64,000 bases of DNA. It comes from Escherichia coli. GTDB taxonomy: Bacteria; Pseudomonadota; Gammaproteobacteria; Enterobacterales; Enterobacteriaceae. Location: assembly GCF_041248615.1 (NCBI RefSeq), contig NZ_CP158426.1, one strand, 5' to 3'. Both the position numbers and the translations under genes were made by a program. The notes under the pieces are model-generated. The model did no database searches. It was not told the DNA's origin and saw nothing but the letters and a program-made list of their open reading frames with translations. Of the stretch, positions 39,491 to 39,997 are shown in pieces (the first letter of the stretch is position 1; each line of letters begins with the position of its first letter).

Positions 39491-39997
39491 TCATGCCCCG
39501 GTCCCCATATGCGCATAACGCAGAGATAAGGGTAGCTGATCGCCAAACGCATAAGGTTCAGCAGTGAGCTGCGAATTCAACCAGATATAAAACGATTTTC
39601 GATATTCAATAACATTCTTCTTTAACTGTTCGGGTGCGTCAGGAGCCCAACGCTCAGGGTAATCGGCGAAAGTGAACGTTGGATAGACATTAGCAACCAG
39701 CCAGACCAATAGCCGTTGAAACTGCTGACGTTCGGCGCGCCCAAGCGGTGGCGCAAGGTCCGGGCGACGATCGAGAACCATCAATGCAATCGCCGCTGTC
39801 TCCGTCATAATCTCGTCATTTTCCAGCGCCAGTGTCGGAATCTGACACAACGGGTTCAGGGTTTTCAATAACTCGCGTGAAGTTCCCTCGTGGTCAAAAC
39901 CACTGACATCAACGAACTGATAAGGAATATCAGCCAGTGTTAGCATCAGCTCACTGATTGTAGAGCCCCATCCGGGTACGCCATACACCTTAATCAT
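39491..39997 (-). CDS. yncG: Glutathione S-transferase-like protein, possibly C-terminally shortened
   Basis: N-terminal GST thioredoxin-like domain (MIKVYGVPGWGS...); 168 aa is shorter than the ~205 aa I recall for K-12 YncG; position next to ansP fits K-12. Confidence 0.7.
   Translation of the reverse strand: MIKVYGVPGWGSTISELMLTLADIPYQFVDVSGFDHEGTSRELLKTLNPLCQIPTLALENDEIMTETAAIALMVLDRRPDLAPPLGRAERQQFQRLLVWLVANVYPTFTFADYPERWAPDAPEQLKKNVIEYRKSFYIWLNSQLTAEPYAFGDQLPLSLRYAHMGTGA

Follow-up and report, generated by a model that had tools for sequence, protein, structure and literature searches.

The yncG locus

The window, the whole 64,000-nucleotide stretch of Escherichia coli DNA analysed here, carries the gene order pqqU-yncE-ansP-yncG, beyond which come an ISAs1 transposase pseudogene and then an RHS core gene, the arrangement annotated in NZ_OW967178.1. 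The yncG gene lies exactly where an orthologue of its K-12 counterpart belongs, divergent from ansP and downstream of pqqU-yncE, and the two neighbourhoods are collinear as far as the yncG stop codon, at which homology with K-12 ends. The divergent ansP-yncG intergenic region (39998..40263; the ansP ATG is at 40264) is conserved with K-12, with 2 mismatches in 403 aligned bases over this region and the 5' end of ansP. A scan of 38980-40260 for consensus promoters and terminators returned nothing above shuffled expectation, and the intergenic region itself was empty of hits.

Downstream of the yncG stop, a 411-bp spacer (38980..39390) forms the edge of a variable Rhs/T6SS island. It is followed on the minus strand by an ISAs1-family transposase pseudogene adjoining yncG (37843..38979), which an internal stop divides into two adjoining ORFs, one of 92 aa and one of 285 aa. 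Every examined carrier of the yncG deletion described below has this broken copy as well. Beyond it, also on the minus strand, lie an intact gene for an RHS core protein of 1,403 aa (33210-37421) and an ORF of 161 aa (32728-33213) whose annotation is that of a pentapeptide-repeat protein and which overlaps the RHS core ORF by 4 bases, a layout that suggests a putative toxin/immunity pair. The preliminary description had placed the gene next to a mobile ISAs1/Rhs region, and both elements are indeed its immediate downstream neighbours. In K-12, by contrast, yncG has yncH and an RhsE remnant on its downstream side.

Such differences are characteristic of this site. Variable Rhs locus 6 is bounded by yncG and pptA (PMC2935791), and its content depends on the strain: yncH with RhsE, a PAAR/VgrG T6SS module, or ISAs1 with RHS. 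Pairwise divergence between lineages is 2-4% over nt 1-400 of yncG, rises to 10-15% from about nt 400 and remains at 5-11% for 190 bp downstream, so that a divergent stretch (5-15% between lineages) occupies about window positions 39200-39600, comprising the last ~200 nt of yncG and the first 190 bp beyond it. Judged by this pattern, the stretch would mark the edge of the Rhs/T6SS island as a recombination boundary, and it is plausible that recombination at this boundary contributes both to the polymorphism of yncG and to its repeated damage.

The yncG sequence itself occupies 39391..39997 on the minus strand, bounded by the native ATG (39995-39997) and the native TAA (39391-39393), and measures 607 bp where an intact gene measures 618 bp. 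In the six-frame ORF list it appears as a truncated ORF of 168 aa (39491..39997, minus strand) that begins MIKVYGVPGWG, terminates LRYAHMGTGA and closes on a premature TGA at 39491-39493; length and ending are precisely those reported in the preliminary description. Comparison of translations shows that residues 1-155 are homologous to YncG and that residues 156-168 (PLSLRYAHMGTGA) are read out of frame. The short frame in another register that had been noticed past the stop corresponds to a mechanical ORF of 53 aa (39391..39552, minus strand), which overlaps the end of the 168-aa ORF in another frame and contains the native YncG C-terminus, ...YLCVMRIWGPGHEWFQDNAANISAIADAVCPIPTLQEILKRNAII, in its original frame up to the original stop. 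Native C-terminal sequence is thus still readable, as YLCVMRIWGPGHEW...KRNAII in the +1 register relative to the truncated ORF, up to the TAA at 39391-39393, and constitutes an untranslated remnant equivalent to native residues about 160-205 (39391..39529, minus strand). Between the two parts lies the deletion junction, CAGCT-ACCC-TTATCT (39529..39534, minus strand; gene nt 464-469).

A net 11-bp deletion shifts the frame at codon 156

By annotation, yncG of the K-12 derivative DH5alpha is 618 bp long and encodes a 205-aa product (WP_000598857.1), in agreement with the length of about 205 aa given in the preliminary description. The window allele is orthologous by synteny to K-12 YncG (b1454; WP_000598857.1), a GST homologue, with which it shares the start codon, the N-terminal GST domain and ~97% of the nucleotides up to nt 464. 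It nevertheless lacks 11 bp, encodes 168 aa instead of 205 and has lost native residues 156-205. Length and terminus therefore both differ, K-12 YncG ending ...LQEVLKRNEII, and the possibility that the K-12 protein is equally short and ends with the same residues can be set aside. A nucleotide alignment with K-12 yncG, proposed earlier as the means of locating an indel, places the net 11-bp loss after nt 464. Nucleotide alignments against K-12, 2017-02-2CC, VE-T9, PA45B and JA0265 place a single gap of 11 bases in the window allele at that point; the gap was recovered in three independent alignments, and apart from it the yncG genes of K-12, 2017-02-2CC and VE-T9 align with the window allele from end to end. 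Mean column identity was 97% in a three-way yncG alignment that included K-12.

The net loss, which holds against every intact allele, removes the codons for T156-L-V-D159 and shifts the frame at codon 156, after which 13 out-of-frame residues are followed by TGA. At the junction the VE-T9 type, the closest intact allele, reads CAGCT-AACCCTGGTGGACTG-TTATCT where the window reads CAGCT-ACCC-TTATCT; by inspection, this can be described either as an 11-bp deletion with two adjacent substitutions or as a 1-bp and a 10-bp deletion without substitutions, the net loss being 11 bp both ways. When ACCC is exchanged in silico for the corresponding 15 nt of VE-T9, the gene can again be read without interruption as a frame of 205 aa. 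A frame-disrupting net change of -11 bp, together with a recognisable coding remnant past the premature stop, identifies the gene as a frameshift-class pseudogene, and bears out the earlier suggestion of a frameshift or nonsense allele of yncG.

Structural meaning of the loss

Over residues 3-200, full-length YncG aligns by HMMER with the beta-class GSTs 1PMT of Proteus mirabilis (GSTB1-1; E = 1.4e-13) and 1A0F, the GstA of E. coli (E = 1.2e-11), and is thus similar to both over nearly its whole length. The resemblance is that of a distant relative: against the GstA equivalog model of NCBIfam, YncG scores 62.7 bits, far under the cut-off of 198, which marks it as a distinct member of the family. 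In the alignment YncG 'GEQLTLVDCYLCTMRTWGP' stands opposite 1PMT 'GDHFTVADAYLFTLSQWAP', within a G-x-x-x-T-x-x-D-x-Y-L stretch in which the TLVD of YncG pairs with the TVAD of 1PMT. Unlike 1PMT and 1A0F, the window allele lacks everything from this stretch onward. In GSTs, helix alpha-6 starts here, and a conserved S/T-x-x-D serves as its N-capping box, which matters for how the C-terminal domain folds. The placement of the break relative to helix alpha-6 draws on the HMMER alignment to 1PMT and on established GST biochemistry. An AlphaFold2 model of K-12 YncG made without an alignment had a mean pLDDT of 37, was unusable and was not applied to helix mapping.

By Pfam search, the 168-aa protein retains the thioredoxin-like, GSH-binding N-terminal domain, matching GST_N_2 (33.8 bits), GST_N_3 (29.6) and GST_N (23.2), all above their cut-offs, and no GST_C model matched it in the same search. 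For K-12 YncG, weak GST_C-type matches that stay under their cut-offs extend over residues 119-200, and hence run across the position of the break. A complete all-helical C-terminal domain, with the alpha-6 N-capping box and helices alpha-6 to alpha-8, is missing from the window product. Translation would thus be expected to start normally and to yield residues 1-155, which comprise the thioredoxin-like N-terminal domain and the beginning of the helical one, whereupon the ribosome would continue out of frame for 13 codons and stop, at the cost of the last 50 native residues, starting with T-L-V-D. If the lost T-L-V-D is the counterpart of the S/T-x-x-D capping box, as the alignment and GST biochemistry would indicate, it would be needed for C-terminal folding; with this box and the C-terminal remainder gone, the product is most likely unstable or non-functional. 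We infer that function has been lost and that the cost of this was neutral or nearly so.

YncG is a putative GST whose overexpression in MG1655 raised the MIC of H2O2 about five-fold (PMC8228696); this tolerance on overexpression is the only reported yncG phenotype. By the account given in that paper, an earlier cell-free study saw no GSH activity for YncG (PMC8228696). On glutathione-dependent catalysis by intact K-12 YncG, these published findings are ambiguous.

Distribution and haplotypes

To place the allele among sequenced strains, window positions 39200-40250 were used as a 1,051-bp megablast query against 5,426 complete E. coli genomes. Matches were returned for 5,407, with at least 80% of the query covered in 4,473, and identity reached 100% in one record, that of isolate 362 from Madrid (NZ_OW967178.1). 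A narrower search, with a 246-bp query across the break and a threshold of at least 99% identity, recovered the junction in 140 of the 5,426 genomes. The lesion is therefore heritable, being present in independent genomes, and it is real, since the same junction occurs at this identity in 140 independent complete genomes; it is neither chance nor sequencing noise. The best 60 of the 140 junction records all bear a truncated-gene product name, and PGAP calls yncG a frameshifted pseudogene in each of the seven carrier records whose annotation was opened. The 607-bp span of the window is identical in NZ_OW967178.1 and NZ_LT599825.1, where it is annotated 'yncG, pseudogene, frameshifted', and the PGAP pseudogenes LQ124_RS11980 (NZ_OW967178.1) and R2K29_RS13465 (NRZ14408) have the identical 607 bp and the same 'frameshifted' call. 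As a pseudogene, then, this sequence is already known, RefSeq having labelled its identical copies 'frameshifted'. The alternative offered in the preliminary description, simple strain variation, holds only in so far as about 140 sequenced genomes form a lineage in which the broken allele has become fixed; it does not hold in the sense of a naturally shorter intact variant, given the PGAP call.

Sequences compared directly in six loci fall into two haplotypes. That of the window has the 11-bp deletion alone, with no second lesion, and only three genomes carry it at 100% identity (isolate 362, NRZ14408 and GMF054), the remaining carriers among the matches listed standing at 99.6%. Most other carriers differ from the window in belonging to a commoner haplotype, which combines the same deletion with four SNPs, among them C427T, which creates Q143*, and which PGAP labels 'frameshifted; internal stop'; Q143* was found in all four carriers sampled outside the three exact matches. 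Strains 28Eco12 and 266917_2 are ST38, phylogroup D (PMC6963479), as is NMBU_W05E18 (PMC7311804). By listed identity alone, the junction matches of these three, at 99.6%, equal those of the sampled Q143* carriers.

Between the two deletion haplotypes, sequence is the same from the break to the end of the 411-bp spacer, and four sites upstream differ. The adjacent ansP gene (40264-41763, plus strand) encodes an AnsP identical to that of K-12 in the window type (WP_001300590.1) and a different one in the Q143* type (WP_001309490.1; loci L008 and L012). Differing AnsP alleles beside identical sequence from the deletion through the ISAs1 spacer suggest that a recombination event had its breakpoint within yncG or shortly upstream of it. 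Within the E. coli genome collection, no intact allele was more than 96.4% identical to the repaired window sequence; the deletion is therefore older than the separation of the two haplotypes, and the immediate intact ancestor is unsampled in this collection.

Elsewhere in the window, comparison with isolate 362 (NZ_OW967178.1) shows sequence that is 99.98% identical in blocks, with differences at two IS elements. A complete IS1414 of the IS256 family (46012-47328), containing a 402-aa transposase ORF (46085-47293), has terminal inverted repeats that are imperfect and 31 nt long, and is flanked by a short direct repeat with a GCTATGC core. Its neighbours are the IS200C tnpA on one side and the 3' end of mcbR on the other, and the site is empty in isolate 362. 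NRZ14408 returns 14 matches to an IS1414 query, one of which is 100% identical over its full length. Conversely, the window has an empty site at about 26240-26243, between nhoA and yddE, where isolate 362 holds a 1.4-kb IS3-family IS1397; the strain of the window is therefore a close relative of isolate 362, and not identical to it. The window also contains, on its plus strand at 12908-14008, an intact gene for a porin of 366 aa (WP_001590132.1), which bears the annotation 'ompC', lies elsewhere than the canonical ompC locus and is flanked by yddG and a gene for a leucine-rich-repeat protein; at this site K-12 presumably carries only a porin fragment, yddL.

Independent losses of yncG

Damage to yncG extends well beyond this lineage, with independent pseudogenes found in others (extracted loci L004, 6254-6854; L005, 3254-3872; L006, 4254-4496). 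PA45B and JA0265, which carry phylogroup B2-type alleles, share an additional T by which a TAA arises at codon 59, and the annotation of each reads 'frameshifted'; PA45B has a further 18-bp deletion. At least 383 genomes hold this +1 T allele at 99% identity or above. In F5656C1 an IS3 element cuts yncG after 243 bp. The PA45B/ST131-type and JA0265 pseudogenes show inactivation of the same gene at the same locus as in the window, but their lesions differ, and the events are therefore separate. In addition, the N-terminal part of yncG is without a match in about 830 of the 5,426 genomes (~15%), and several genomes keep only the 143-149 bp of the 1,051-bp query that lie closest to ansP. With the 11-bp, +1 T and IS3 alleles and the ~830 absences taken together, about one complete E. 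coli genome in four, at the least, lacks an intact yncG. We know of no essential role for YncG, which is consistent with its frequent loss.

Whether the remnant beyond the break has been released from selection was approached through substitutions unique to the window lineage, of which 2 fall among the 464 nt that precede the break and 7 among the 143 nt that follow (Fisher p = 0.0008, or p = 0.009 when the two bases abutting the gap are excluded). This excess would fit relaxed constraint on an untranslated remnant, confounded as it is by hypervariability at the 3' end in all lineages. As decisive proof of relaxed selection it was rejected, since in all lineages hypervariability affects the gene's 3' third and reaches 190 bp past its end. 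Other signs of relaxation diverge: the sister haplotype has acquired Q143*, whereas in the window haplotype the stretch encoding residues 1-155 contains no nonsense codon and few lineage-specific changes.

Weighing the explanations

We hold with high confidence that the gene is E. coli yncG, encoding a beta-class-like GST homologue, that a net loss of 11 bp at codons 156-159 has inactivated it, and that it is a lineage-fixed pseudogene. That the 11 bp are truly present, and were lost only through a sequencing or assembly artefact that conceals an intact gene, has practically no probability. Indels in single assemblies can in general be errors, and nothing specific to this one was found; an identical junction in 140 complete genomes, the work of many different laboratories using a variety of platforms, would be difficult to produce in this way, a loss of 11 bp in non-repetitive sequence is unlike the typical homopolymer error, and the allele has its own linked substitutions, as the sister haplotype has its own nonsense codon. 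A genuine deletion could still leave a functional short variant, if the 168-aa protein or its thioredoxin-like domain kept a useful activity. The N-terminal 155 codons are intact and match the GST_N models as well as those of K-12 do, the region upstream of the gene is conserved, and the 464 nt before the break hold two lineage-specific changes, although such low divergence may equally reflect recent recombination and a short time. Most carriers sampled have a stop at codon 143, inside the retained part, which argues against selection on the ORF; the break takes with it the stretch aligning with the conserved alpha-6 N-cap motif and all that follows, and other lineages have lost yncG entirely. 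We therefore regard a functional short protein as very unlikely. The native frame past the junction is open to the original stop, and CCC-U contexts can allow low-level +1 slippage; such a context is visible by inspection at the junction, where a programmed +1 ribosomal frameshift near CCC-UUA might restore the native C-terminus. No stimulatory element is evident there, with an in-frame stop, a rare codon and a Shine-Dalgarno-like stimulator all missing at the junction, the open frame is an unremarkable 139 nt, the corrected product would still miss T156-D159, and in the sister haplotype a nonsense codon lies upstream. The chance that recoding rescues the protein is accordingly negligible.

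A further alternative concerns only origin, namely that the lesion arrived with a divergent 3' segment recombined in together with the ISAs1/Rhs island, the break lying at or near the recombination junction. It is possible, if the less probable course. The jump in divergence at about nt 400, sustained for 190 bp downstream, is what such an event would leave, as is the identity of the deletion haplotypes from break to spacer despite four upstream differences and different AnsP alleles; the changes abutting the gap, too, can be read as deletions of 1 and 10 bp relative to the VE-T9 type. Against this, intact VE-T9-like alleles share much of the 3' haplotype without the deletion, so the divergent segment does not itself carry the lesion, and a donor with the same junction outside the lineage was not found. 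Recombination would in any case alter how the allele arose, and not what the allele is.

Implications for E. coli

Inactivation of yncG by the 11-bp deletion, fixed in its lineage, remains the preferred reading, and it has a practical consequence for annotation: the short GST-like ORF should be recorded as a pseudogene, as RefSeq does already, and does not represent a novel short GST. Within E. coli, the 11-bp junction, with or without C427T, can furthermore serve as a convenient marker of an ST38-related clade. A bolder proposition is that the repeated loss of yncG in extraintestinal or multidrug-resistant lineages (the 11-bp deletion and then Q143* in ST38-related phylogroup D, +1 T with TAA in B2, truncation by IS3, and absence from ~15% of genomes) reflects selection for loss, through antagonistic pleiotropy, instead of neutral decay at the margin of a recombination hot spot, or else that the 155-residue fragment keeps a residual role in the window haplotype; we consider this a long shot. 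As a pseudogene of repeated origin, yncG is best seen as a dispensable K-12 y-gene that is recurrently lost beside the Rhs/T6SS variable island, a status that is relevant to the use of pan-genome and knockout data on oxidative-stress genes.
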